DNA of 64,000 nucleotides from contig CP154954.1 of NCBI GenBank assembly GCA_039621445.1, positions 21,190,642 through 21,254,641 on the forward strand, read 5' to 3'. The notes beneath the pieces are model-generated. The model did no database searches, was not told the origin of the DNA, and was given only the letters and a program-made list of their open reading frames with translations. Within the stretch, counting starts at the first letter, position 1. The number at the start of each line of letters is the position of its first letter. Source of the DNA: Euglena gracilis. Taxonomy: Eukaryota. This document shows positions 6,001-60,921 of the stretch, piece after piece. The position numbers and the translations under genes were made by a program.

Positions 6001-8525
6001 ACATCCATCTGTTGAAAGCCCTTGCTATTGATCGAGGGGCAACATCGCAACTGAACTGTGGAATGAATGACAATCGGCGATCACAGATTTGATTTTTTGT
6101 AAAGTTTTTGGAACATGCAATCGCCAAGAATAAGAGTACTCTGGATCGTGGCTGAAATACGTGGCAATCTGTCAGAAGCCCTTGCGAACAAATCAAGGGG
6201 CGACATGTTCTGTGTAATTCAAAATTTTAGAAATTGATACCCAAAATCCTTAAATGCCCAAAATGAACAAAGTCTGTTGTGTAGCCACCAATTTCCTTTC
6301 GTTTTTGAGCTTTTCGAAGGACCCGAATAATAAAAATTCTTGTGCAACTCAACCCTTTTGGGGGGGGGGCAAATCCCTTTTTGTCCCAATTGTTCGAGGG
6401 CCCCAAAATAAAAAAATACCTTGTGTTTCCAACCCATTTTGGTGGGGGGGGAATCCCTTTTGTTACTCAACTTTCCAGGAACTCAAAAAAAAAACAGAAT
6501 CCCTTGTGTGACCCACCCGTTTTAGGGAACAAATCCCTTTTGTTGCTCAAGTGTTCAAGAGCCCAAAAAATAGCTAAATCCCTTGCGTTACCAAGTTGTT
6601 TTGGGGGGGCAAAACCCTCTTGTTGCTCAACTGTTAAAGGGCCAAATCCCTTGTGTTGCCAACCCGTTTTCAATATTCGATTCGAGAGTTGCCGCATAAG
6701 AGGGAGTCATGACAAATTGCAACCTCAAATTTGGAACTCGAAGTTTTTTGTGGCCGTTTTGCGTGTTTCCAAAATTCTGTGGTCTTGTTTTTGCTTCCAT
6801 GAAGGCAGATTTTGGGATGCTGATTGGAAACGGCACCTCAATGAATCAAGTTTTGCTTTTTTTGCTTGCCCTTTGTTCAGGCATCATGGAGAACATTCCA
6901 TTTCAGTTGAAACAAGCCTCAAAAGCATCGAGGCTGTGTCCTCACCTTTGGCATTTTTGCTGTGGTTGCCTGGGCCTCGTTTGAGCATCATCAAACCTGC
7001 AGGTTGTCATTGCCTTCTACTGCCGCCTCCCTGTTGCTCCATTTTAATGATGGGTCGTGCGGGGGGGGTCGTGGGAGAAGGGTCGCGGGTGGGAAACGGG
7101 TTTTCACGACGTCACGCATGACATGTGTGACGTCATTTTTTTATCTAATTTTGTGTCCCAATTGGGAATTTGAATATCATTTCGGCCAAAAATAATTAGG
7201 AATTTGTGACAATTTTGCAGTTTCATCCCCAATTTAGGGGCAATTCCGAATTTATGTGAGTTTTTTTTACACTTTTTGGAAGCTCGAAGGTCGCAGGTCG
7301 CAGGGGTGGGAGGTCGATAAAAAAAATGACCAAAATTGGTGATTTTGCACATTTGTTCCGAATTTGACCAAAAATTATATTTTTGAGGCATTTTGGCCCA
7401 TATCAAGTTCACTGTTGCGATCAAGGGAAATTTGGTCTCGTGATTTTCTTGACGGTTTTTTGGCCGTTTTTCAAACAAAGCATAAAACCTTTTTTTTCAA
7501 AAAAGGTGACGTGGTCTGGCTGTGGACCACCTCATAGTTGTAATGGCAGTGGGGGTCCATCCAGACGACGGATTTTTTCGTGAATTGCCCACTTTTTGAC
7601 CATTTTTGCAATTTTTTTTTTGCAATTTTGCGATTTTTTTTGCATTTTTTTGAGACTGACATATTCCTCATTATTCCATATAATATTGCACCGTGGGATG
7701 CCAAAAATGGCCACTCTGGGGGGCGGACACTTTGGGGGGGGGGGGTCAAATTTTGGCTTTCAGCGCCTTTGGCACCGAAGGAAAGCCACTTTGAGGGGTC
7801 CCGGGCGAGAAATTGGCCATAGACTTTTTGGTGGGTGCTAGCAGTGCCTCACCCCCCCCTCAAAGTGTCCCCACTCCCAAAGTGGCAAAAAAAATTTGGC
7901 AAATTTTGGGTTACCCCCCCAAAAATGGCCATTTTCCTTCGGCACCTTTGGCGCTGATGGCCAAAATTTAACCCCCCAAACTGCCCCTCCCCCCCCCAGA
8001 GTGGCTGTTTTGGGGTCCCACGGTGCCTGGATGGTGGCCTATGGGGGGGGGGGGGGGGGTGAGGGTAGTCGCTGGCGTCCATGATCTGTGCCGACTGCGG
8101 TACCGACTGCGGAAGCTAGCGACTAGTGACCCCCTCTGCGGACTAGTCGCCAGCAACCATTGATGGTCGCTAGCAACTGATCTCTGTCCACAAATAGTCT
8201 GTCTTAAAGTTAAACTATTTCAGGAGGTCCATGTTGGGGGTCAATATGCAAAGATTTCAAAATGAAACCTTCCATTTTAAAATTTTCTCTCTTTGAACCC
8301 TTGCCCATTTGATTTTGCCTTACAGATCATCAAGACAGTAATTTTGCAACACCGGGAATCTTGTTATTTTACAGCCCTCGAACAGTTGAGAAAGAACATT
8401 GCTTCATTGTGTTCACCCTTGGGCAACAGCAATTACCAATTGGCAACACGGTAGCCAACCAGCGTTTACCCGCGGCAGCCCTGCCTTGCACACACAAAGA
8501 GATTTTGTTGATGGAAGCCCCCCCC

Positions 8526-8562
8526 CCGGACTTAGGACAAAGCCGGTGACCCCCTACGATGG
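8526..8562 (+). repeat. Solo fragment of the left terminal repeat of the YR-PHD element
   Basis: CCGGACTTAGGACAAAGCCGGTGACCCCCTACGATGG matches about 16398-16434 with one mismatch. Confidence 0.75.
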
Positions 8563-15700: not shown

Positions 15701-16378
15701 AAATAATCAATTTTGGGGGAAAAGTTCAAAAATGCTCTTTTTTGTGGTCTTCTTCCCATCATTTCCTTGTTTTTGTGTTTTGTTGCTTTTGGTGGCTTTC
15801 AAGATCCAGAAAAAAATGAAAATTTGGGCGGTTTTGGGCTGATTTTTTGGACAAAAAAGTCTCAAAAAAATTTGCAAAGATGGCCTGGCATGGCGTGGCG
15901 AGGGGGTCCGAAATGGGGAGAGGGAAAAAAAATGGACCTGAGTTGCTTGTCAACCGCAGGTTATCCGAAGAAGACCAAGATGAACGCTCGTAGACAAGCT
16001 CCAACATTGATGAAAAAAACCGAGGATTTCTTTACAATCTTCAAAGTTGGTCCAAACAAAATCTCTTTTTCAAGAAATGAACAACCATGATATCTTTCTG
16101 GGCTTCAATCACAAAGGAAGGTATGGCAACCAAATGAAAATCTGAAACCAAAAAAAACACCAATGAAACAGTGACGGACGTGTTGGATCTTGTTTGTAAA
16201 TGCAAAAATGCAAACGATCTTCAAGGAAATGCTTCCAAGGCCGACACACCAACAATACATTAGAGAGTTCTTGGGAGGGCAGTTGCAAACGTCACAGAAA
16301 ACGAGCAAACCCCCTTCCGGGGGTACCAACCCAACCTGACCCACTCCACCGCTCTCCCACCCTCCCGGTCCAACCTTT

Positions 16379-16428
16379 AAGTCGGTGACCCCCCCCACCG
16401 GACTCAGGACAAAGCCGGTGACCCCCTA
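16379..16428 (+). repeat. Left terminal inverted repeat of YR element (50 bp)
   Basis: Exact reverse complement of 18750-18799; further GGACAAAGCCGGTGA motif copies extend to about 16500. Confidence 0.85.
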
Positions 16429-16734
16429 CGATGGACTCAGGGGTGACAAAGCCGGTGAGGGGGGGTCACCGGCTTTGTCCTGAGTCCGGTGACCCCCCCC
16501 CAATTTTTAGAAATGAGTGGATGAATCGTGTGGGGATGTGTGGGACAACCAATTACAAGCCAGAAAAGGCCACCATCCACTGAGACGCCAGGAGGACCAC
16601 AAGATTGCCAGGCACAGCACGAGGACAGAGAGAGAGCTGCCACCAAAAAAAACCTGGTACAAGCATCAAGCATACGTAATGCTATTGGTAGGTTCCAGGA
16701 GGAAAAAAATGGTGGCAGACAATTGGTGTGATCC

Positions 16735-18698
16735 TCATTGCTTACGCTTCATGTTCAAAACACGAGCGGGCATGGGGGGCATCTCCCTGCCATCACAACG
16801 AGGACAACACCAACTGTTGCGAGGAGGGGGCATGGTACGGCCAGCGCAATCAAGGTGCCAAAATTCGTGGCATGAGTCGCAGTCCATAGGGCGTAGCAAA
16901 CCGCGTTTGCCCAACGGCAGAAAACACCGAGCACAAGGCTTTCCTTGCATGCGCTCCTCGGTGGTTTCCGTCTTTAGTACGGGGAACGGGTTAGGAAGGT
17001 TATCCATGATGACCGAGGTGGCAGCTCCCTCCGGTGCCGGCGGCGCAGCGAAGACCGCCTCCCGGTACTCGGCCTTCTTGGCCGCCAGGTAGCGCTCCAA
17101 GCTGTACTGCGAGCAAACCACGGGCTCCTGGGAGAATAAGCAATCGGGTGCAAGAAAATGACCAGGACACAACCTCGTCACTAGAGTTCTCGTCGACAAC
17201 GATGATTTCGCCACGATATTGAACAGTGCGAGGACGTTTTACACGTGGCTGCAAGGAAAAGACATTTTAATTTCATTTAAATGGCGGAGAAATGTGACCT
17301 GACGAGGTGCATCCACATCGAAGACCTCAGATTTTACGCATATGACCTCGGGTTCCTCGGACTTCGGCTGCTCCACCTTCACATCCTCCTCTTTCGTTGG
17401 ACCTTCAAGTTTCACACTCGGTTCCTTCTTTTCTGGCTTGAAGGTGGACTATGAAAAAGCACGTGAAGGAAAATAGTTTTGGGAGGTGGCACCTTGGACA
17501 GAACGGCAGCAGCTTGCAACTGCACGTCACTCGGTAAGGCCCTGTGGTACCGGTCCATAGTCCGCGGTACCACGCCCACAACACGAGCGGCATTGTGTGC
17601 ACCCATGGAATTGACCAAGCGGGTGAAAACAGGCCGCCTGGCACAGTCCCGAAAGGTCACTGGGCGGCCAAGGACTCCACGCGCCCACAGGACAGCCCCT
17701 TTGAAAGTTGCCATTGTGGCTGGTTTTGTCTGCTCCTTGCGTTTTTTGCTGTCGCGTGCTGCTGACATGTAGCCACCGCCAAGGAAAAATGGTCCATTGC
17801 GGTCATCTGACTCCACAACGGCGAGTTGGCGACGGTACGCGGCAATGGGGCATAACTTTTCATTTTCATGGGCAAACAGAATTTGCTCGTGTGCTTCTTT
17901 GGAAGAGCCTCCTTGTAAATTTTTCATCTTACCAAATTTGACTTTCAAAATTGGTTGGCCGTCTTCCATGTTTTCCGGATGAAAATTTCCAATGCGAAGA
18001 AGCTCCATGCTTTCTGCCCGTTGCCCCAAATTGTACGACAGCACAAGGATGTTGTACCGTTGGGTTTCAAACCAGGAATCCCACTTGGTCTGTGAATGTA
18101 GCTTGAGCATATCCGAATCGTCCAATACCCGCACCTCCGGTTGACGTGCTTTAAACTTCTTCAGCCGGGATGAACATGAGTCCACAAATCGAACAAAAAT
18201 TGGAAATTGGCTTTTTGCTTTGGGGACGATTACGTGCTCAGGCTTTGTCAATTTGTACATCACAGCCAAGGCGTTGACGTAAGTTGTCAACGTCTGCGGA
18301 ACCCATTCATACATGGGCACCCCAGCCTGCCGACACAGAAGCTGCCTTTGGGCCTTGTGGGCAATCTTTTCTGCTTCTGTGTCAAAGATGGCGTGCACTG
18401 TGAGCACATGCTTCGCAAAAGCGCACATGTACTCGTCTAGGTCATCAGTTTTGTAGCCTCTCACATCACAAATTTTTTGGAAATTGGTAAGAGCTACATA
18501 CCCCCCTTTCTGATTTTTGGCACTTCCATCGGGCTGAGGTACAGATTCTGTAAAAATGTCCCCAAAAAGCACTGTATCCGCAGATTCTTTTTTCATTGGG
18601 GATTCCGTGAATTCTTTCAACCTTGCCAAAAAGGCACTGGGGGTGGGTGTGGGTCCCAAGCCAGCCTCAGCTACCACAACGGCCTGTGCCGGCATCAT
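16735..18698 (-). CDS. Tyrosine recombinase (DUF3504/Crypton-like) fused to a C-terminal PHD finger, 4 exons, about 607 aa
   Basis: Exons 18698-17493, 17448-17299, 17248-17174 and 17127-16735, joined by phase-0 GT-AG introns of 44, 50 and 46 nt, give one open frame. YR motifs: LGQRAES, KMKNLQGG, LCPIAAY, PFFL, DCARR, DRY. PHD C4HC3: CARC...CDSCHEFWHLDC...WCCPRC. Confidence 0.85.
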
Positions 18699-18703
18699 TT
18701 TGG

Positions 18704-18740
18704 CTGTGGGAAACAAGAAACAAATAATGAAAAACAGAAT
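18704..18740 (-). promoter_or_regulatory. Polypyrimidine tract plus AG acceptor just upstream of the YR start codon (probable spliced-leader trans-splice acceptor)
   Basis: Minus strand reads TTCTGTTTTTCATTATTTGTTTCTTGTTTCCCACAG|CCAAAATGATG. No obvious upstream coding exon in the element. The SL interpretation is inference from the euglenozoan context. Confidence 0.5.
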
Positions 18741-18749
18741 TTTCCTCAT

Positions 18750-18799
18750 TAGGGGGTCACCGGCTTTGTCCTGAGTCCGGTGGGGGGGGTCACCGACTT
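18750..18799 (-). repeat. Right sub-terminal inverted repeat of YR element
   Basis: Exact reverse complement of 16379-16428; lies about 138 nt inside the right end. Confidence 0.85.
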
Positions 18800-18804
18800 A
18801 TAGC

Positions 18805-18927
18805 AAGACCCCCCCCTCACCGGCTTTGTCCTGAGTCCGGTGGGGGGGGTCACCGGCTTTGTCCTTCGGACAAAGCCGGTGACCCCCCCCACCGGACTCA
18901 GGACAAAGCCGGTGAGGGGGGGGTCTT
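18805..18927. repeat. Perfect 60-bp-stem hairpin, TTC loop
   Basis: Arms 18805-18864 and 18868-18927 are exact reverse complements; centre GTCC-TTC-GGAC. Confidence 0.9.
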
Positions 18928-20119
18928 TCTTGATATAGAGCCCCCCCTCCTCTTGGGGTTGGCACGGGAGAACTAAGGTTTCCAGTACGAACCGGCTCCC
19001 GCCCCGGGAGGTTGTCTTATGGGGAATGCTATCCCCACATTCCCCAACATGAGACACTGTATTTATCTTTATTTTGCATCTGGCCCGAGTTAAGCCCATT
19101 TTGCTAGGCGCAGGTCCAAAAAAAGGACCAAAACCAGGGCCTATCTACCAACATGAAAACTGTGTATTTTGGAAATAACTGCCTAGGGCCACGAGTCGTC
19201 AAAAGGGCCCAATAGAAGAATTGCAACACCCGTGCAACACCCTATCCAATGGCACCTGGCTCCATGGGTGACCAAAGTTGCACCCCACATCCGTAACCCC
19301 ATTTCTTCGTTTTCCGGCCATTTCTGGTTCTCTTTGGCCAGCATCGCATCCCAAAAATGAATCGTTGTGGTTTTCTGGTCAGATGTCCAAGCACCATCTA
19401 GGTCATCACTCATATTTTCCAGTACTCCTGGACATTGGGGAGGGGGGGAGAAAGTTAATGTGGCCTCCTTTCCAAGACTATTTTCAGCCGTAAACACATT
19501 CTGTCACGTCGAGCACCTCCTTGACCACCCCAAAAACAGCAAAAAAAAATCCGCCAAGCACAAATGGCCATTTCTCGGGCCAGGTGGAGAGTTGGACTAA
19601 AAAAGCGAACAAACGACATGTCGGGCGTTCCCAAGGCTTTCTTTTAGGTCGCCGGACATTTCTTTTGATTCCCCATTATTTTTGGGTAATACTAAAGAAA
19701 TTGGTTTCTCAATCCAAAAATGGCCAAAAACGACAGAGTTGAAGCGTGAGATGCTGTGTTGGAGCGTAAATTGGCCATGTCTTGGGCTAGTGGATTGCGG
19801 TGAAATTAGTTTGGGGGTTTCAGGGGCTCTGGACATTTTGCTTGGTTTTGTGTCATTTTCCAGATGTTTGGCATTTCGCAATTTTTTAGCCAAAAAAAAA
19901 CGCCTGAAATTGGCCGAAAAATGGCCGTATCTCAGGCGAGGTGGGGAGTTGGAAAAAAAAAAGTGAAGATACGGGGTGTTATGGGGTGAGGCACGTCCGT
20001 CCTGGGCTTGACATTTTGCTACATTTTTGAAGGTTTTTGCCATTTTCTTTCTCAGAGCGACCTAAAATAAAGCTCTGGGCCGTGCCGGGCTGTCGGGCCA
20101 CCAGAATTATGCGGTCTTG

Positions 20120-21168
20120 CAGGCGGGGGAAAAATGCGGAAATTATGCGGAAAAATGCGGAAAAATGCGAAAATTATGCGGAAATTATGCGGAAATTATG
20201 CGGGAAAAAAATGCGGAAAATATGCGGAAAAATGCGGAAAATGCGGAAAATATGCCGAAATTCTGTGGAGTCCCAGGTCACATGGAGAAGACAGATATAT
20301 TTCTACCTCACAATATGCAGGGTCCCGATGCTATTTGATTTCCATCGCCGATGCCCAAGCTTGCCAGAAGTCACCAAAATGCAATGGAAAAACAAAGCAC
20401 AATAAAAATGTTCAGCGGCTTTTAGAATCAGTTCTCAGAATTGCAACGTTCATTTGCACTTCTTTTCCACAACCCCCAAAAAAGGCAATAAATCAAATTT
20501 CTTGTTTTTTTTCTTAGTTTTTTTTTCTGTGGTTTTTGTGGGTTTTTTTGCCATTTCTTTGTGGTCCAACCTCCGTGCATTTTGTGACAAAGCCCACTGA
20601 TCGGCATCCAGCTGTCCACAAACGGAAAAAAACCTTTCCACACTTGAAGTGGCGACCGGGGTGGAAATCAGAAACAAAACACGTTCACGAAAAAGAGATG
20701 GCCGATGCGTCTTCCACCATTCAATCAACTCCTCTGGGCCGTCAATATCCCTTTTTGTGCATTGCAAATATTGTATGAAATCTTCATCACATCCATCCAA
20801 ACGCTGATGACATAAGAGGCAAATTATTTGGGTTGAGCACGCGAAGTTGACGGTAAAACTCAATTTGTTCCTTGCTTTTCTCAAAGCGAACATTCAAACC
20901 GTCCTGCAACGATTTCAAAACTCTGATGAACATATCACGCAGAAACTGGGCTTGCACCTGAACTAGGACCCTTTTGGAGAAAAAAAAGAGGCAGACAAAT
21001 TATGCATAAATCAGAGAGATGAAAAGACGAGCACTTGTGCTCCAACATATTGGGGAAACAATGAACCTTGTAGTTGACCTAAACGTAAAAAAATTACAAA
21101 AAATGCGGAAATTATGCGGAAAAATGCGGGAAAATGCGGAAAAAATGCGGTAATGGGGGTTCGAGGGT

Positions 21169-21204
<36 letters not shown>

Positions 21205-21338
21205 AAAAAAAAAGAAGAAAAAAGAATAAAAGAAAATATGCGGAAAAAAAAAATATGCCGGGGAAAAAATGCGGAAAAATGCGGAATAATGCAGAATAAT
21301 GCGGAATAATGCGGGCCGCTTAATTTCCCCCCCCCCTG
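20120..21338 (-). mobile_element. Internally deleted hAT transposon
   Basis: Ends CAGGCGGGGGAAAAATGCG ... CGCTTAATTTCCCCCCCCCCTG. AAATGCGG subterminal arrays at both ends. Carries a hAT dimerisation-domain fragment. TSD not preserved. Confidence 0.6.
20564..20788 (-). pseudogene. hAT transposase C-terminal dimerisation domain fragment
   Basis: YLQ...LIEWWKTHRPSLFRERVLFLISTPVATSSVERFFS matches the hAT dimerisation signature WW...P.L...L..P.TS..VER.FS. Confidence 0.8.
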
Positions 21339-24163
21339 GGCCAGGCCTTTGGGCTGACGGGCCGGACTAGGCAAGGCGGAGCCCCTGGGCCATCAGGCTG
21401 GACCGGGCCAGGCCACTATGCATGTTGCTAAAATTTTCTTCGGATTGTAGTAATCAAAGCTTGGTCCATTTGGGGGAGTATCCAAAATACAAAGGAAAAG
21501 TCAGATGGGGCAAGAGAAAATGACCCTCAGTCAGGCCTTGGGTCATTAAAGAGGGGTGGTCCGTTTTAGGAGTGGGGGGTGGGGGGTCAAGTCACCACAC
21601 GGAGGATGGAAAAAAACTAGCACATGGAATTTCCAGGGCTTGGAAAAAAAGATCAACTTAAAACTTGCAAATGCAATCTTCCAACAAGGAACCAGATTTA
21701 TGTGACACTTGGACAGATGAGTCAAAACACTTTCAAGGAGCAACGCATCAAAACAACATTGAAGCATCAACTCTGCAGAAGGGATTCTTCGTGACTTTGA
21801 AAAAGGATCTCATCCAGATTTTTCTTGATTCCCACATACCCCTCGACTGGACTGAGGTTGAGGTTAGTGGGAAAAAACCTCAACCTGAACGTCAACAACC
21901 TCTACCTCAACCTCAACCCCAATGAAACCGTCCAAATTCAGAAAATTGAACAGGCAAAAGGCATTGATTGGACAATCCTTCCTCAAAGGTGATATGTGTG
22001 TGCACAAACCTGCAAGTTTGTGCACATCATATCTGAAAAAAAATGTGCAGGTTGGAGATTTTAAACTTGAGATAAATGACCAATGGCCCAATTTTTGAAA
22101 GATTCCAGTAATTTGCCACTTTTTGTACATTTTTCACATTTTTCACACTTTTTTTTGCCATTGAGTATTTTTCCTTCGAATTCAGACACAAACGTAAACG
22201 TGACATTGAGGAAACATTGGGGCGATGGCAATACGGTTGAGGTTTTTTGGGGACCCCCCTCCCCCCCCCCTGTACAGTTGGGATTTTCGGGACCCCCCCC
22301 CTAATGCCGACCTCCCCGAGACAGATGAAAATTTTGACACCAAAAGTGGCCTTTTTAGACAAAAAAAGCCTTAAAATTTTTCCGGCGCCTTTGGCGCCAG
22401 GTTTTTGGCCGATTTTTGAGGGGGGGGTTGGCAGTACAGTTGGGACCCCAGGATCCCCCGGTGTTGAGACAGTACAGCAAAAAGTGCCAAAAAATGCAAA
22501 AAAAACTGACCTCGGGACCCCCCTCCCCCTGCCAACGCTCCATTGAGGCAAACTCAATTTCAACCTCAATCTCGGGGGCTAGGCGCGGTTTGGGGGGGGG
22601 GGGTCCAGGACCCCCCTCCCCCCCGTCGCGCGGTCGCTCGCGCACCCGCAAGCCCCCCTTGACCCCCCTGTCTGACACTGTGCCTGGCTTCCCCAATAAA
22701 AAAAAATGCGAAAAAAATCGCCATTTTTTTGAGGCCCAAAAATGGCAAAAAATGTCCATTTTCAGACGCAGAGAGCGCGGCCCAAACGGCACTTTTTTAA
22801 AAATAAAAAAAGGCCCCCAAATGGCCAAAAAAATACCTCTTTTTGACCTAAAAATCACCGAGTTCAGGCCATGCGCAGCGCGGTCGCCCTTGGACCCCCA
22901 TCCCCCCCCCCCCCGGCCGCTCGCCCCCCTCAGCCCCCCCCCCTGCTGTGACTAACCTCCCTCAACCTCAACCTCAATTCCTCAATCCAGCCCCGCTCCT
23001 GGCGCCCCCGGGTGTCCAAGGGTCCTCATCACGGACGAAGCGGTGATAACAATCGTATGGGGGATGCCCACCGCATGGGGCATAGGTTCATCCTCACCGA
23101 CCCGGCTCAGGCCGGAGACTCCGAAGCCCCAGCCCCCGACATCCTCCCCGACCCGGCAGTGACCGGAGGCCCCGCGGCCCTATCCCCCGACATCCTCTGC
23201 GACCCGGCTGGGAAGACCGGAGACACCGTTGTTCCACATCACCATCCTGGAGCCACAACCCCCAAATGGGGTCTTCCACCTTAGACTATGATCGACACCA
23301 TCCCCAAACTGGGACCCTGCAAGTGACCATTATCGAGCCCACCCCCATCACAGCAGGAGCAGAAGCCGGACCCCCTCATCCCGAAGGGATGCATGCCACA
23401 TGAAGCAGAATGTCTACAGAAGAGCCCCAGCCCAGTCCTCCCAAGGAAGCATGGACCAGCAGATGCATGCCCTGGCAGGGGGCAGGATGGACATGGCTCT
23501 GCTCCAGCTACATCAACAACAGCTACAACACATGCAGCATATGCAGCAAATGCTGTACATCCAGAACAAGCTTCTGCAGCCAAACTCTCAACACATGCAG
23601 CAGATGCTACAGCCCCAACAAAGGCCACCCCAGCCAGATCCCCAGCCAACTCAACCATACTCACCGCGAGCTTCGACCAGTTCCATAGCAACCACGACAA
23701 CATCGACCTCGACGTCATCGTCCAACTGCCAAGAGAGAAGACGTGTGACCAGTGTGACCTCACGTACAACGTCACATACAACCTATTTTTGGAACTTTTG
23801 GGTCCAAAAACAGATCCAATTAGGAATTTATCACACTTTTTCGGCAATTTTGATTCCTAATTTGGGTGCCAATTCCTAATTGGGTGCCATTTTTTGGCTC
23901 CTACTGGGATGCGGAAACCCTCCATGTGTGGGTCGCGGGGGGGTCGCGGGGGGGGTCGCGGGGTTACACCCCCTGAGCAGGTCATCGGCCAGAAACTAGG
24001 GATTTTTGTGTAATGCCATTCCCTTTGGTCAATTTTGGTGAATTTTTGAAATAGAATACCATGCGGCATGCCTGAAATGGAGGCTATGCAGTCGAGTTCG
24101 GGTCCCAAAACCCCCCTCCTCCCCTTGTCTAGTTGAGTTCGGAACTCGACAAGGGAGATCCGG

Positions 24164-24590
24164 CAGTAGACTTTGGTCACTTTGACCACCCCCTCCCCCC
24201 CCCCTATGGTGAAGTTCATCGTTTGAAAGTTCACTGGGGGGTCCCGGACCCCCTCCCCCCCCTCTCTGCCTAACCCACCGGTGAACTTCACCGGTGATGT
24301 TCACCAAGAGAGCACTTTTTGGCCAAAAATGGACAAAAATGACATTTTTGGGCAAGTTTTCGGAAATTTCGATTAAATTCCATGAAGCATCGGCCTCGAA
24401 ATGACCATTTTGAGAGGAAAGGAACAAAATTTCACCCATGAAAATTTCACCCCCAACCATCAAAACAGTGAACTTCACCGGTGTACTTCACCGGTGAACT
24501 TCACCGCCAAAAGTACCCCCCCCCCTCCTCCCCCGGTGAACGTTCACCGGTGAAGTTCACCGGGAGGTCCACAGCCCCCCCCTCGTACTA
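24164..24590. repeat. Interspersed repeat rich in palindromic GGTGAAGTTCACC / CCGGTGAACTTCA motifs
   Basis: Inverted homolog at about 29240-29842; ends not resolved. Confidence 0.55.
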
Positions 24591-26638
24591 CCTAACCTCC
24601 AGGGGGGTCCCTCAATCCCTCAGGGTGGATTAGAGTTGTAACCCTAACCCTACTCCTTCAAATAACCTCATAAATTCGTTTTGGCCACAGGTTAACGCCA
24701 TCAGGAATTCTTTTATGCCAAAATTGCACTTTTTATGCTCCACAGGGTGTGGCCAAGGGTTTGGATGCTTTTGAAAAGGAAAACTATTGAGGTCGTTTCT
24801 ATCGACCATGTGGTCGGCCCGACCTCCAATGTGGTCGGTAACCGCAACAGGTCAGCCCGACCTATAGTCAAAAGTCCTTTGAAAAGGGGGGGGGGCGTAA
24901 TGCGGTACAGTGGCAATTTCTGTCGATCTCCAGAGGTCGGCCCGACCTCCAGAACTAGCATGGTCAATATTCCGCCCGGGGCTGCAATTTTCGGTGACTT
25001 TCAGTGATTTTACGTTAATTTTTGAAATGTTAATGAAATGTTAACCAAGTTTTGAATAGTGCTGAGCTCTTAAGGGGACTTGCATGTAATGGAAGGCCGA
25101 AAAGACTAGGATTCCAAACTTCACGTTTCTGATATGTTAACCCCCCCATTAGGGCGGGATTGAGGTTGAGGTTTGGAAAAAAACCTCAACCTCAATGTCA
25201 ACAACCTCAACCTCAACCTCAACCTCAATGTGACCTCAATGTCCAAAATTCAAATAATTGAACTCACAAAAAGCATCGATGGGACCATCTCGTCTTGAAA
25301 AAACCTTCCTCAAAGGCAAGTTTGTCAGCTTTTCTGCCAATTTGCAACATAAGTGGGTGGAAACAAGAAAAACATTGTGGGTTGGTGATTTAAAACTTGA
25401 GATAAGTGACAAACTGCCCAATTTTTGAAAAAATCCATGTAATTTGCCTCTCTTTGTAACACTTTGTTCAAAGCTTTTTGTCGTTGAATCATTTTCCTTT
25501 GTATTTTGGCATTGAGGTGACATTGAGGAAAGATGGAGGTTGGAAAACCTCAACCTCAACCTCAACCTCAACCTCAACCTCAACCAACCTCAACCAATAC
25601 CAATCCAGCCTTGCCCCCATACACCCCATACCCGTTTTGTTGGATTTTTTCGACTTTTTTGACGCGTTTTTGATCCAAAGTCAATGGGTTGGCGGCCAAA
25701 AACGGGGCTCTGGCGGGGCGAAAAATGCTCATTTTCGGCTCAAAAACAGTTTTTCCAGGTCCGGGAGGCCAAAAAACATCGTTTTAGGCAAAAAAAATTC
25801 GACGTTTTGGGAATTTTTGGGACTTTTTTGACCCGTCTTTGACCCAGACTCCATAGGTTTCGGGCCAAAAACGGGGTCGGGGGTCGAAAACCGCTCATTT
25901 TCGGCCCAAAAACAGTTTTCCCAGGTCCGGGAGGCCCAAAAACATCGTTTCGGGCAATTTTTTTTAAATTTTTAAATTTTTTGACCCGTTTTTGACCCAA
26001 AGTCAATGGGTTTTGGGCCAAAAACGGGGCGCCGGCGGGTCAAAAAAACGCACATTTTCCACTCAAAAACAGGTTTTCCGGGTCCGGGAGGCCCAAAAAC
26101 ATGGTTTCGGGCAAAAAAATTCGAATTTTTTCAACTTTTTTTGACCCGAAAATGACCCAAAGTTCATTGGTTTCGGGTTCAAAAAGGGGGGTGGAGGGGT
26201 CGAAAAGTGCTCGTTTTCGGTTTGAAAACACTTTTTCAGGTCCGGGAGGCCAAAAAAAACATGACTTTGGGCCAACAAAATTTTTCGACTATTTTTTGTC
26301 CGAAAACGGCCCAGTCTGACAGTGGAAAAGGTTACAAAATGTCCCAAATTGGCCGAAAAACGGCCGTATCTCGGGCTTGGCGGGGAGGTGCGGGGAAATC
26401 AAAATACCAGTGGGTAGGGAGGGCGTCCCAAAGGCTTCAATTTTGGTCTCCAGGAATTTCCTTTGATTTTGCATCATTTTCGAGATATTATTGAAAATAT
26501 CGAGGGAGCACGCCGTCAACCAGCCGTCGGCCAGCCGTGTGACTCACAGGAAAATGACCCGAGCCAATTCAGAAGTTCGCTGTTGATCTTCCTTCAAGGT
26601 CATGTTCATCGTTGGTGGAGGCTGCATATTGCCCATTT

Positions 26639-27601
26639 AAACCGGCGTTTGAGACGCCGGGTTCAGGACAGAACCGGCGTCCCCCCCCACGGGTTTTACG
26701 GACGCCGGTTCTGTCCTAAAACCCGGCGTTAGGAACGCCGGTTTTGTCCAAAACCCGGCGTCCGGTTTTCATTCCTAAAAATGTCACCAAAAGTGCCCCA
26801 AAGTGGCCCTAAGGTGCTGGTATGACTGTTTCAACCATCTAGGACAATGAATTTTGCCATTTGGGGACCACTGGGGTGGATATCCAAATTTGGTGAAAAT
26901 TGGCCCAGATTTGGAAATAGAGTACCGTGCATAGTGGAAAGATCTGATGACCACCGCTGGTCGTCTGTTGAAAAGAGCTTTCGATCGAGGGGTAACTTGG
27001 TACCCTAACGTTGCACGCAGCCCGAGATACGCTCGCGATCGTCGGATCATCCTGAATCTGAGTCGAAATTTGGGGTAATTTTCAGTGATTTTTGGTTTAA
27101 GATGCTGAATAAACCTTACAGAAATGTGTTTTCTCTTCGAATCGACCACCTGAGGGGTCCTAGGGGGCACCAGAGTTGTGAAATTAGGATTTCCTAGTGA
27201 CAGAAAATAAGAGATCCAGGCGGCGTGGATGAATTTGGTGGTGATCGCTAGTCGTCTGATGAAAAGAGCTTTCGATTGAGGGGTGAGTTTGTCCCTCGAC
27301 TATTGACACAGCCAGAAATACCCTCGCGATCGCCGGAATTTGGTGAAATGCAAAGTGGCGTGACATTGCAGATTAGTGGTTGGAAATTGGTCCTGGGAGT
27401 GTCCTTTGCCCGAAGGGTGGGGACGCCGGTTCTGTCCTGAACCCGGCGTCTCTAAAACGCCGCTTTAAACAAGGGGTGGCGGACGCCGGTTCTGTCCAAA
27501 ACCCGGCGTTCCGGACGCCGGTTCCGTCCTTCGGACGGAACCGGCGTCCGGAACGCCGGGTTTTGGACAGAACCGGCGTCCGCCACCCCTTTTTTGTAGT
27601 A
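26639..27601. mobile_element. Non-autonomous element with the same end architecture as the YR-PHD element
   Basis: About 48-bp inverted repeat (26639-26686 vs 27419-27466). Perfect 59-bp hairpin at 27471-27591 with GTCC-TTC-GGAC centre and a 10-nt tail. Inserted in CCCATTT^GAAGTC without TSD; the uninterrupted site is seen at 38071-38083. Confidence 0.85.
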
Positions 27602-28644
27602 GAAGTCATTTTTCGTCAATTTTTGTGAATTTTGCCAATTTTGGACCTTTTTAACCAATTTTGACCTTTTTGGCCTATTTTTGGGTCATTCTCTTGTCAT
27701 TGTGAAGAATTTTTGTCCACAAATTAATTGAATAACAAAAATTGCTCGCAACTGGTGTCCCATTTTTAATGGACTGGCAAAACTTACTTGATAATGAACA
27801 AAAAAAAGCTCAAATTTTGTGTGAAATGGAGGGTGTGTCCCCTATGCCCCCCCCCTGCGACCCCCCCCCCCGACCCACACATAACACATGGAGGGTTTCC
27901 GCATCCCAGGAGGAGCCAAAAATGGCACCTAATCAGGGATTGGCACCAAATTAGGAATCAAAATTGCCAAAAAATGTGTGATAAATTTCTAATTCAATCT
28001 ATTTCTAAACCAAAAGTTCTAAAAATAGGTCCCAACTGACATTGTATGTGAGTTGGGACCTATGAGTTAGGACCTATGTGAGTTGGGACACCTGGGCAAG
28101 CAAGTGGCACGAACGTTCTACTCCCTCAATCTGGCCTTCCATGCCATTGGTGACCCTCAATTGAAACACTTGTTCAATGTCGTTGCCCCAGGCCAGGTGA
28201 CAGCATGCCCAACTGCTTTCCTTTGCAGAGCTGTGACCTGGTCCTGGTTTCCAGCTGCCAAGCTCGAGGAAGCTGGGAAGAGAGTTCCTTGACGAGATCT
28301 ATGCAGAGCAACGAGCTGCCTTGAAGGAGGAGTTGATATGCGAGAAGGAACAAGATGACCCAGAATTTCACCAAGTTGTTGTGTAACATGATGCATGATT
28401 TCAGCCGTAGATCACTGCCGACAGACATTTTTCTTTGGGCGCGATGACCATGTACCCAATTTTCTGCTCTCACCCCCCCCCCCCCCGGAGGGATCGGCAC
28501 ACCTCACCCAGTCTAGAAATGTCTTCATTGAAGCACAATAATTTCATGAACAATTCAACCACTGCCAAAACTCAGAAGTGAAAATGGTTTAAAGTCTTGT
28601 TTTTACCATGTACAATATTGGTAATCAGCAGCATCTTTGGAGCA

Positions 28645-60337
<31,693 letters not shown>

Positions 60338-60921
60338 ACTGCCCCGGTGAGCAATTGGCCACCACATGGGTACGTGCACCATCTTGCCTCCAGTTCTGTG
60401 TTTTGCCTGCCCCGCTGTACCATATCGCCCCATGCCAACCTCACCCTGATGACCTTGGCAACACAGTCGTGACCCTTGGAGCCTGAATGGCTCAGCAGTT
60501 TCCTCGAACTCAGTGGGTCGAGGAAAGGGGTCCCCCCCCCCCCCAACCTGCCATGGGGAGTCCAGACCAACCCCGGGGGGTCCGACCCTCCAAATGCCCA
60601 TTCATCGAACCCTGCTCCCTCGTGATGCACCACTCCCCCCAACCCACGGGTTTTGTGCTGTTAAAACGCTTCATTTTATTGTATTGAGTCCAATGCACCC
60701 CACCAGGCAATCATCAAATTAAGCTTATGCTGGTGCTTTGTGCTCCCAGGGGGAGGGGGCGTTTCCTTAATATTTTTGGAGTGATGCTTTTTTCCCTTGG
60801 AGTGACATTTATGGCATGAAGCGGAGGGGGTATGTGTGGGGGGTGGTGTGGGGGGGGGGTGGTTAGGTGTTGTGTGTGGCTGGTTGCACAGGAAAGGGAT
60901 CTTGTTATCTTGGTTTGGGGG

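Follow-up and report, generated by a model that had tools for sequence, protein, structure and literature searches.

A candidate tyrosine-recombinase transposon family with large hairpin ends in Euglena gracilis

What kind of machinery places a 963-bp non-coding sequence into a eukaryotic repeat to the exact base, without duplicating its target, and gives it a hairpin of about 60 bp beside one end only? The question is raised by a 64,000-nt stretch of the Euglena gracilis genome (assembly GCA_039621445.1, contig CP154954.1, positions 21,190,642 to 21,254,641 of the forward strand; hereafter the window), in which we studied three elements, all on the + strand: element 1 (16379-18937, 2559 bp), which carries a recombinase gene, element 2 (26639-27601, 963 bp), a non-autonomous non-coding member, and element 3 (30049-30920), a degraded member of the element 2 subfamily (74.8% over 745 nt by BLAST). 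The reading that we favour, with a probability of roughly 0.55, is that these belong to one eukaryotic DNA transposon family whose mobility depends on a Cre-like tyrosine recombinase (YR) with a fused PHD finger, i.e., a Crypton-class tyrosine-recombinase DNA transposon with DIRS- and Helitron2-like ends and abundant non-autonomous derivatives. It draws on an insertion that can be read to the base, an elaborate end architecture common to elements 1 and 2, and a recombinase gene that has kept company with these ends in diverged relatives.

Insertion of element 2 and the shared end architecture

The boundaries of element 2 are set by an empty site in a paralogue of the host repeat that it interrupts (38071-38083, + strand; break between 38077 and 38078), recovered by BLAST of the element's flanks. 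The left flank (26512-26638) corresponds to 37936-38077 at 81.7% and the right flank (27602-27829) to 38078-38297 at 76%, and the two matches adjoin each other in the paralogue. With the insert the site is CCCATTT^AAACCGG...GTAGTA^GAAGTC, and without it CCCATTT^GAAGTC; since neither junction has bases common to element and flank, the ends are exact, with no target-site duplication and no loss of host bases. This bears out the original prediction, made from the letters of the window, that element 2 had entered a host repeat still intact at 38071-38083 without duplicating it. The host repeat without the insert is also present in contigs of three public DNA runs, with the joint of 26627 to 27602 found in 6, 4 and 4 contigs, and 30 contigs of run X1 with loose ends at 26627 continue into the right-flank sequence; these insert-free contigs may derive from paralogues rather than alleles. 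A piggyBac-like TTAA element was considered and rejected, there being no duplication.

All three elements had further been predicted to read TTT^AA...TA^GA, and in the sequence they do: each is flanked by TTT and GA(A/G), and the first element base is A throughout. The proof by an empty site extends to the ends of element 2 only. For elements 1 and 3 the 3' ends were placed by the rule of a 10-nt tail (see below), by mutual similarity and by analogy, and these two elements share the end TGATATA plus the following GAG, which could be part of the element and not of the target. As TTTGA occurs at only 186 of the 64,000 + strand positions (0.29%), three agreeing TTT^GA sites are unlikely to have arisen by chance, and a TTT^GA target rule, with three cases and one verified empty site, is plausible. 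The 5' end of element 1 is supported by contigs of runs X1 and X4 that cease matching exactly at 16378. These 435-nt contigs (16027-16378, at single-copy depth) continue past 16378 for 84 nt unlike the window, which could represent an allele without element 1 or one with another insert.

Element 2 has nine start-to-stop open reading frames (ORFs) of at least 40 aa; the longest lies on the minus strand, starts at a GTG and has 128 aa. Its 5' end is formed by a terminal unit A (26639-26688, + strand), which repeat analysis resolves into a half-site in + orientation, a 5-nt spacer, a half-site in - orientation and a 15-nt motif; the first 30 nt fold as a small hairpin (-10.3 kcal/mol). Toward the other end lies A', a reverse-complemented copy of the 5' end (27415-27466, + strand; 92% for element positions 1-50 by BLAST, 95% as a repeat match), followed directly by the large hairpin (27467-27595, + strand), with arms at 27467-27529 and 27533-27595 and a TTC loop at 27530-27532, as defined by repeats and fold. 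The two 63-nt arms, 98% complementary across the 3-nt loop, fold as DNA into 59 perfect pairs, one mismatch and three further pairs at -106 kcal/mol (z = -18.4; 0 of 200 shuffles fold as well). The element's 3' end lies 10 nt past the perfect stem (tail at 27592-27601, + strand, from the fold and end alignment) and 6 nt past the full arms; for the element's final 6 nt (GTAGTA), the internal copy holds no complement. Element 2 also contains an internal 128-nt direct repeat (26919-27046 and 27210-27337, 73% identical), the matching part of which is kept in element 3.

The same parts recur in the same order in element 1, to which the internal sequence of element 2 is unrelated. The limits of element 1 are taken from the start of a 100% A/A' match and from analogy with element 2. 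Its 5' terminal unit A (16379-16428, + strand), whose 5' end forms a small hairpin (-5.0 kcal/mol), is complementary at 50 of 50 nt to A' (18750-18799, + strand; BLAST and end alignment), and the large hairpin (18802-18930, + strand; repeats and fold) consists of 63-nt arms at 18802-18864 and 18868-18930 (98%) around a TTC loop, with a 60-bp perfect part and then a 10-nt tail. Both elements can accordingly be written as 5'-A ... A'-B-TTC-B'-tail-3', where unit A, of 43-50 nt, comprises a half-site, a 5-8-nt spacer, an inverted half-site and the 15-nt motif, and where A' adjoins the hairpin with a gap of 0 nt in element 2 and 2 nt in element 1. From the 5' end to the first motif there are 28 nt in element 1 and 27 nt in element 2, from the last motif to the 3' end 22 nt in both, from the A' motif to the first hairpin motif 60 nt in both, and between motifs inside an arm 33 and 32 nt, respectively. 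The common layout that had been proposed for the 963-bp element and 16379-18937 is thus confirmed, the spacing of the parts agreeing to within 1 nt, and so are its details, namely a perfect stem of 59 bp in element 2 and 60 bp in element 1, the TTC loop, a common 11-nt centre and the 10-nt tail. The 15-nt motifs of the two elements differ at 4 of 15 positions, and these two variants at near-identical spacing bear out the proposal of a diversified family. Judged from sequence, fixed spacing despite sequence divergence is what a protein-binding architecture under selection looks like.

In one respect the proposed layout has to be amended. The termini were described as inverted; both physical ends are instead direct copies of a 43-nt unit, and the inverted copies are internal, i.e., A' and the left hairpin arm. 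Each hairpin arm holds another copy of the unit, and the right arm, which is the physical 3' terminus, is direct relative to the 5' end (the direct copy of the 5' unit in the 3' terminus is 97.7% in element 1 and 84% in element 2). In both elements, joining the 3' end to the 5' end gives a sequence whose reverse complement is A'B, over about 125 nt, with one substitution and 5 nt of gaps in element 1, and two substitutions, a 2-nt gap and the 6-nt tail in element 2. The strand carrying the joined ends folds on itself as one hairpin, about 120 bp long, whose bulge holds the join (-163 and -158 kcal/mol). A foldback element was also rejected as an identification, the hairpin being at one end only.

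Might such palindromes be mere by-products of replication slippage or fold-back copying in a repeat-rich genome, the insertion itself having come about by some other recombination? The genome is extremely repeat-rich, and the window has other palindromes, at 31922-32015 and 29994-30115, the latter showing that fold-back copying does occur here. We nevertheless hold this explanation to be very improbable: the insertion is exact to the base, and a multi-part geometry is repeated to within 1 nt in two sequence-divergent subfamilies. The 64 kb hold only four inverted repeats that are close-spaced and have arms of 30 nt or more; two are the hairpins of elements 1 and 2, and a third is in element 3. 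A by-product would also leave unexplained the degenerate motif, which has 18 matches against 0.19 expected (0 of 100 shuffles reach 18), with 16 of the 18 within the three elements, one at 8518-8562 and one, with 2 mismatches, at 60645, and which in diverged relatives accompanies a conserved recombinase gene (see below). The shared hairpin centre, the 11-mer GTCCTTCGGAC, occurs exactly twice in the 64 kb, at the two hairpin centres, a count that by itself is not significant, as 13 of 100 shuffles give at least two matches at up to 1 mismatch.

Pattern scans of other collections returned no relative: a protein-pattern scan of metagenome contigs gave 348 pattern matches and a pattern scan of viral contigs 311, none of which was a relative. 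A DNA scan of public collections with the hairpin centre and its CCGG shoulders gave 120 loci, all of them palindromes of at most 19 bp and none like the 60-bp arm; we read these as ordinary short bacterial hairpins caught by a pattern that is too generic.

The recombinase gene and its linkage to the ends

The sole gene of element 1 (YR-PHD; 16735-18698, - strand) has four exons and a 607-aa product according to a gene model supported by the alignment of relatives and by the fold, and is antisense relative to the orientation that places the hairpin at the 3' end. Its introns are of the GT-AG type and short (17449-17492, 44 nt; 17249-17298, 50 nt; 17128-17173, 46 nt). The spliced model aligns, through the PHD finger and up to residue 588, to the relatives P0035 and P0095, which have the YR and PHD parts in a single ORF. 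The PHD finger is weak in element 1's own exon (E 0.024) and clear in P0035/P0095 (E 6.6e-07), in agreement with the C-terminal PHD finger that had been predicted for this protein.

A word-indexed search yielded two relatives, and a HMMER scan 217 representatives at E <= 0.001, 24 of them at E <= 1e-30. An alignment of 25 sequences shows no variation at R231 (within GxRxE) or K263 and at least 90% conservation at D355, R358, R359 and Y388; the putative catalytic residues persist in relatives down to 23% identity. The AlphaFold model obtained from this alignment (pLDDT 86.9, pTM 0.77) gave 40 Foldseek matches in the PDB at E <= 0.001 (best E 9.1e-06, probability 1.00, TM for the target up to 0.64). 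Among the listed ones, Cre/Tre, XerA, Tn1549 Int, IntI, lambda Int and XerH predominate, with IntI bound to attC (2a3v) at rank 33 (E 5.2e-04) and two yeast Ndc10/CBF3 structures in the lower ranks. By its modelled fold, then, the element 1 protein is a tyrosine recombinase, and the YR identity assigned to it earlier is upheld by the Cre/integrase fold and by the R, K, R and Y conserved across the family. The nearest cluster in a language-model Atlas is a eukaryotic 'ALOG/Phage integrase' (score 0.98), which we take as a lead only. Lookups of 10 relative clusters returned a named record only for P0019, a 'hypothetical protein' labelled Genlisea aurea, which is uninformative on function and host range. 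In the RNA run X21, depth over the recombinase gene is at most about 0.7 per bin, too low to speak to introns or expression.

Is this enzyme the element's own or a passenger? In P0003 (43% identical), the upstream read-through contains TGFVLSPV, three residues and TGFV, a peptide and spacing that correspond to the translated left arm and centre of the element 1 hairpin. In P0070 (49% identical over residues 2-100), YIRKD...GLRTKP lies about 27 codons before the start, and element 1 has YIKKD, at its very terminus, ...GLRTKP about 26 codons before the start. Four relatives have an upstream read-through of 25 residues or more, and in two of them (P0003 and P0070) the element 1 motif is present. 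On these comparisons, gene and terminal motif stayed associated while the protein diverged to 43-49% identity, which speaks for a cognate enzyme rather than a captured gene.

Contigs identical or nearly identical to the YR gene have a depth of 4741 against about 75-140 for unique sequence in run X1, and 1830 against about 45-70 in run X4; roughly, as depth is not copy number, this hints at tens of recent copies of the gene. For the short non-coding copies, the summed depth is about 1e6 against about 1e2 for unique sequence (again a rough indicator). We infer that non-coding elements such as element 2 would be mobilised in trans by a recombinase. Element 2 has a motif that departs from that of element 1 at 4 of 15 positions, and the two have unrelated internal sequences. 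The partner recombinase of element 2, if any, is probably another family member outside the window; within the window there is neither a second recombinase copy nor a second PHD copy, and the 28 ORFs of at least 180 aa other than the recombinase ORF match no Pfam family at E <= 0.01. Of the earlier interpretation of a mobilised family, the YR fold, the PHD finger, the diversification and the duplication-free insertion of element 2 are retained, and movement of the non-coding elements by the YR and the TTT^GA rule are carried forward as proposals.

Relation to known classes and a proposed reaction

By enzyme content the nearest class is that of the Cryptons, described as YR-only eukaryotic elements (Goodwin 2003; Kojima and Jurka 2011). 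In PMC3212892, Cryptons are described as YR-only elements with introns, no true duplication and non-autonomous derivatives that far outnumber the autonomous ones (see also PMC13465315 for background), lacking inverted or long direct terminal repeats and having either 4-6 bp direct repeats that match the target or none. Our elements resemble them in having a YR as the sole gene, no reverse transcriptase (RT), introns, no target duplication and abundant non-autonomous derivatives, and differ in their 43-50-nt terminal units, the internal reverse copy of the joined ends, the 59-63 bp hairpin and the absence of bases shared with the target. The PHD finger present here is likewise unmentioned in PMC3212892 (0 occurrences).

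The internal copy recalls DIRS1-like retrotransposons, for which PMC3266345 names as a unique signature two neighbouring internal complementary regions, left and right, that lie close to the 3' end and mirror the termini; integration without duplication is also reported there. On that description, the two share adjacent internal regions mirroring the joined ends, a YR enzyme and duplication-free integration, and one may ask whether our elements are DIRS-derived, such that the internal complementary copy serves to complete or circularise a cDNA, a full DIRS-like element providing RT in trans and the YR only integrating the circle. A'B has the DIRS1 signature property, duplication-free integration is part of the DIRS1 model as presented in that source, and short non-coding copies are very abundant by contig depth, itself a rough measure. 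Neither element 1 nor the window ORFs of at least 180 aa, however, contain an RT, RNase H or methyltransferase; element 1 has no gag; three introns are retained in the YR gene; and this gene is antisense to the orientation that places the internal copy near the 3' end. Moreover, the termini are mutually direct, not inverted, and the right complementary region abuts the right terminus to give a hairpin with a 3-nt loop, unlike the DIRS1 arrangement. No fused or longer forms of the recombinase were found, which is weak evidence in the same direction. A DIRS origin therefore strikes us as improbable.

A Helitron2/Helentron rolling-circle origin deserves slightly more credit, and is still one that we doubt. 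On this explanation, the 963-bp copies would be non-autonomous, their Rep-helicase would be encoded elsewhere, and element 1 would carry its recombinase as a passenger, much as Fanzor is carried by some Chlamydomonas Helitron2 elements. PMC3627910 describes for Helitron2 a 5' asymmetric terminal inverted repeat (ATIR) that lies 0-2 bp from the end and also makes a 5' hairpin, a 3' ATIR that directly precedes the 3' hairpin, duplication-free insertion after TTTT and, in some families, a gene in opposite orientation. On this description, the likeness comprises the inverse copy of the 5' end directly before the 3' hairpin, the small 5' hairpin, the short tail and T-run insertion without duplication, and four described features (5' ATIR hairpin, 3' ATIR, T-run insertion and antisense gene) are all present here in topology. 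What separates them is size and content. The ATIR-like units here are of 43-50 nt, not 8-15 nt, the hairpin has 59-63 bp whereas no more than about 20-30 bp separate the Helitron2 3' ATIR from the end (repeats and hairpin being 4-6 times larger overall), and the eight copies of the 15-nt motif, in arrays, have no Helitron counterpart in the passages of PMC3627910 that were consulted. The elements also start with A, not T, and encode a Cre-fold YR rather than a Rep-helicase, of which there is no sign in element 1 or among the window ORFs of at least 180 aa. Finally, putative catalytic residues kept down to 23% identity and a motif linkage kept at 43-49% are unlike a captured gene in decay.

We thus file the family as a plain member of neither Crypton, DIRS nor Helitron2, Crypton-class by its enzyme and with a new end architecture. 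Sub-terminal hairpins, a PHD finger or an internal complementary region were not described for any recombinase-only eukaryotic element in our searches of the full-text literature; Repbase and supplementary files may hold relatives.

How could the favoured tyrosine-recombinase transposon use such ends? We propose that the internal copy might serve as a splint: in a folded single strand of the integrated element, A would pair with A' and B' with B, and the same pairings in a circle would give a palindrome or cruciform of about 240 bp. Such pairing would set both element/host junctions side by side in a junction-like structure lined by the eight copies of the 15-nt motif. The recombinase would bind this motif array and cut between host TTT and the element at one junction and between the element's ...TA and host GA at the other, whereupon the host flanks would be rejoined exactly and the element ends joined to each other; insertion would be the reverse reaction at a TTT^GA site. 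The 963-bp element would then retain the cis parts only, using a recombinase in trans, probably from a cognate subfamily outside the window, and the PHD finger would probably read chromatin at the target. This scheme would account for the absent duplication, the exact ends, the conserved distances, the abutment of A' on the hairpin and the lack of shared target bases. What the observations show is the anatomy of the elements, the exactness of the insertion, the YR fold with its conserved residues, and the association of the YR gene with the motif in diverged relatives. The action of the YR on these ends, the single- or double-stranded form of the intermediate and the joined-end intermediate itself are all parts that we infer.

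Bacterial systems offer precedents for some of these steps: IntI acting on folded attC, XerCD acting on the folded CTX phage strand, and IS608 with its sub-terminal hairpins require little or no target homology and make no duplication. IntI/attC, XerCD/CTX and the 'peel and paste' IS200/IS605 elements, compared here purely for how they work, have in common a one-strand bulged hairpin site and the absence of duplication; they are bacterial, and we claim no membership in them. A stronger version, in which the family stands for a new eukaryotic superfamily whose Cre-fold YR-PHD cuts and rejoins folded single-stranded ends held by an internal splint, as a counterpart of the integron attC, CTX phage and IS608 reactions, is in our view rather unlikely.

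Several observations weigh against the tyrosine-recombinase reading or parts of it. Classical YR exchange requires a shared overlap of 6-8 bp, and unlike this the junctions of element 2 share no bases with the target; the 5' end of the element also lies at the outer edge of a half-site and not at the canonical arm/spacer position, and the end layout matches Helitron2 equally well. The element 1 protein matches 0 Pfam families, Phage_integrase (PF00589) included, this family is matched weakly in 5 of the 25 relatives (best E 0.012), and a profile search of PDB sequences returned no recombinase. Going by motif spacing and predicted secondary structure only, the position of the HxxR histidine appears to be taken by D355, and the H/W position by V380. 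P0015 and P0040, which have long upstream read-through, lack the terminal motif, and about 1000 query 6-mers against 155 proteins would by our estimate give one chance 6-mer match; the weight of the P0003 and P0070 evidence therefore lies in the P0003 8-mer and in where both matches are placed. The recombinase is not seen at work in any copy, and the 15 joints listed, out of 1319, include no joined-end (circle) read.

To our knowledge, the way in which Cryptons and other eukaryotic recombinase-only transposons move has never been shown, and their featureless ends are one reason. The cis parts of the family described here are sharply defined: exact ends, countable motifs, a giant hairpin and, in mirror image, a copy of the joined ends. 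Together with a small intact recombinase gene and abundant short derivatives, they could allow the reaction to be reconstituted in vitro or in heterologous cells. The family connects groups that have been treated as unrelated, i.e., Cryptons by the enzyme, DIRS by the internal complementary region and Helitron2 by the asymmetric inverted repeat with its hairpin, and bears on the old proposal that DIRS retrotransposons came from a Crypton-like ancestor. Were the splint reaction true, the DIRS internal complementary region and the Helitron2 ATIR with hairpin would be one solution to the juxtaposition of two ends, and the former would belong to the recombinase step and not to reverse transcription. 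A sequence-specific, scar-free, duplication-free eukaryotic integrase would also have practical interest.

Remnants and the repeat setting

Element 3 departs from the layout of the other two in that the centre of its hairpin is deleted. At its left end, the first 12 nt are followed by a 54-nt inverted copy of the element's own left flank, after which the element resumes at its position 15; an inverted-repeat search delimits here a palindrome with 59-nt, 100% complementary arms (29994-30115, + strand). The left flank has no further copy in the window. The palindrome looks like a fold-back copying error seeded at the small 5' hairpin of the element, or like a trace of the insertion chemistry. 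An isolated 45-nt piece of the element 1 terminal unit (8518-8562, + strand; 95.6% identical by BLAST and motif scan) lacks the first 11 nt of the unit and anything past position 56, being cut on both sides, and may be the remnant of an old copy or of an excision.

The window as a whole is repeat-rich eukaryotic DNA, and contigs of the three public DNA runs mark most of 16000-31000 as high-copy repeat, with a summed contig depth of 1e5-4e6 against about 45-140 for the few unique pieces, figures that indicate abundance only roughly and are not copy numbers. No Rfam family was matched in the 64-kb window, element 2 included. The host repeat interrupted by element 2 (25519-26520 and 37900-38300) is the most abundant sequence of the 16000-31000 stretch, its summed depth being 1.8-4.2 million where unique pieces have about 100; it holds a short GCCGTCGGCCAGCC tandem and is itself probably another mobile element. 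A further repeat unit at 31880-33400 has at its borders inverted blocks (31890-32015 and 33265-33400) of TAGTCGGCCGACTA-like palindromes. Homopolymer runs of C and G, up to some 40 nt long, occur in it at 33080-33130, and the unit, probably a distinct transposon, is embedded in a (CA)n/(CACCC)n microsatellite. In the RNA run X21, reads pile up at 29026-29526 to a depth of about 33-36 per strand, with many loose ends of long G runs (29407-29463), which may reflect a transcribed G-rich repeat or a library artefact.

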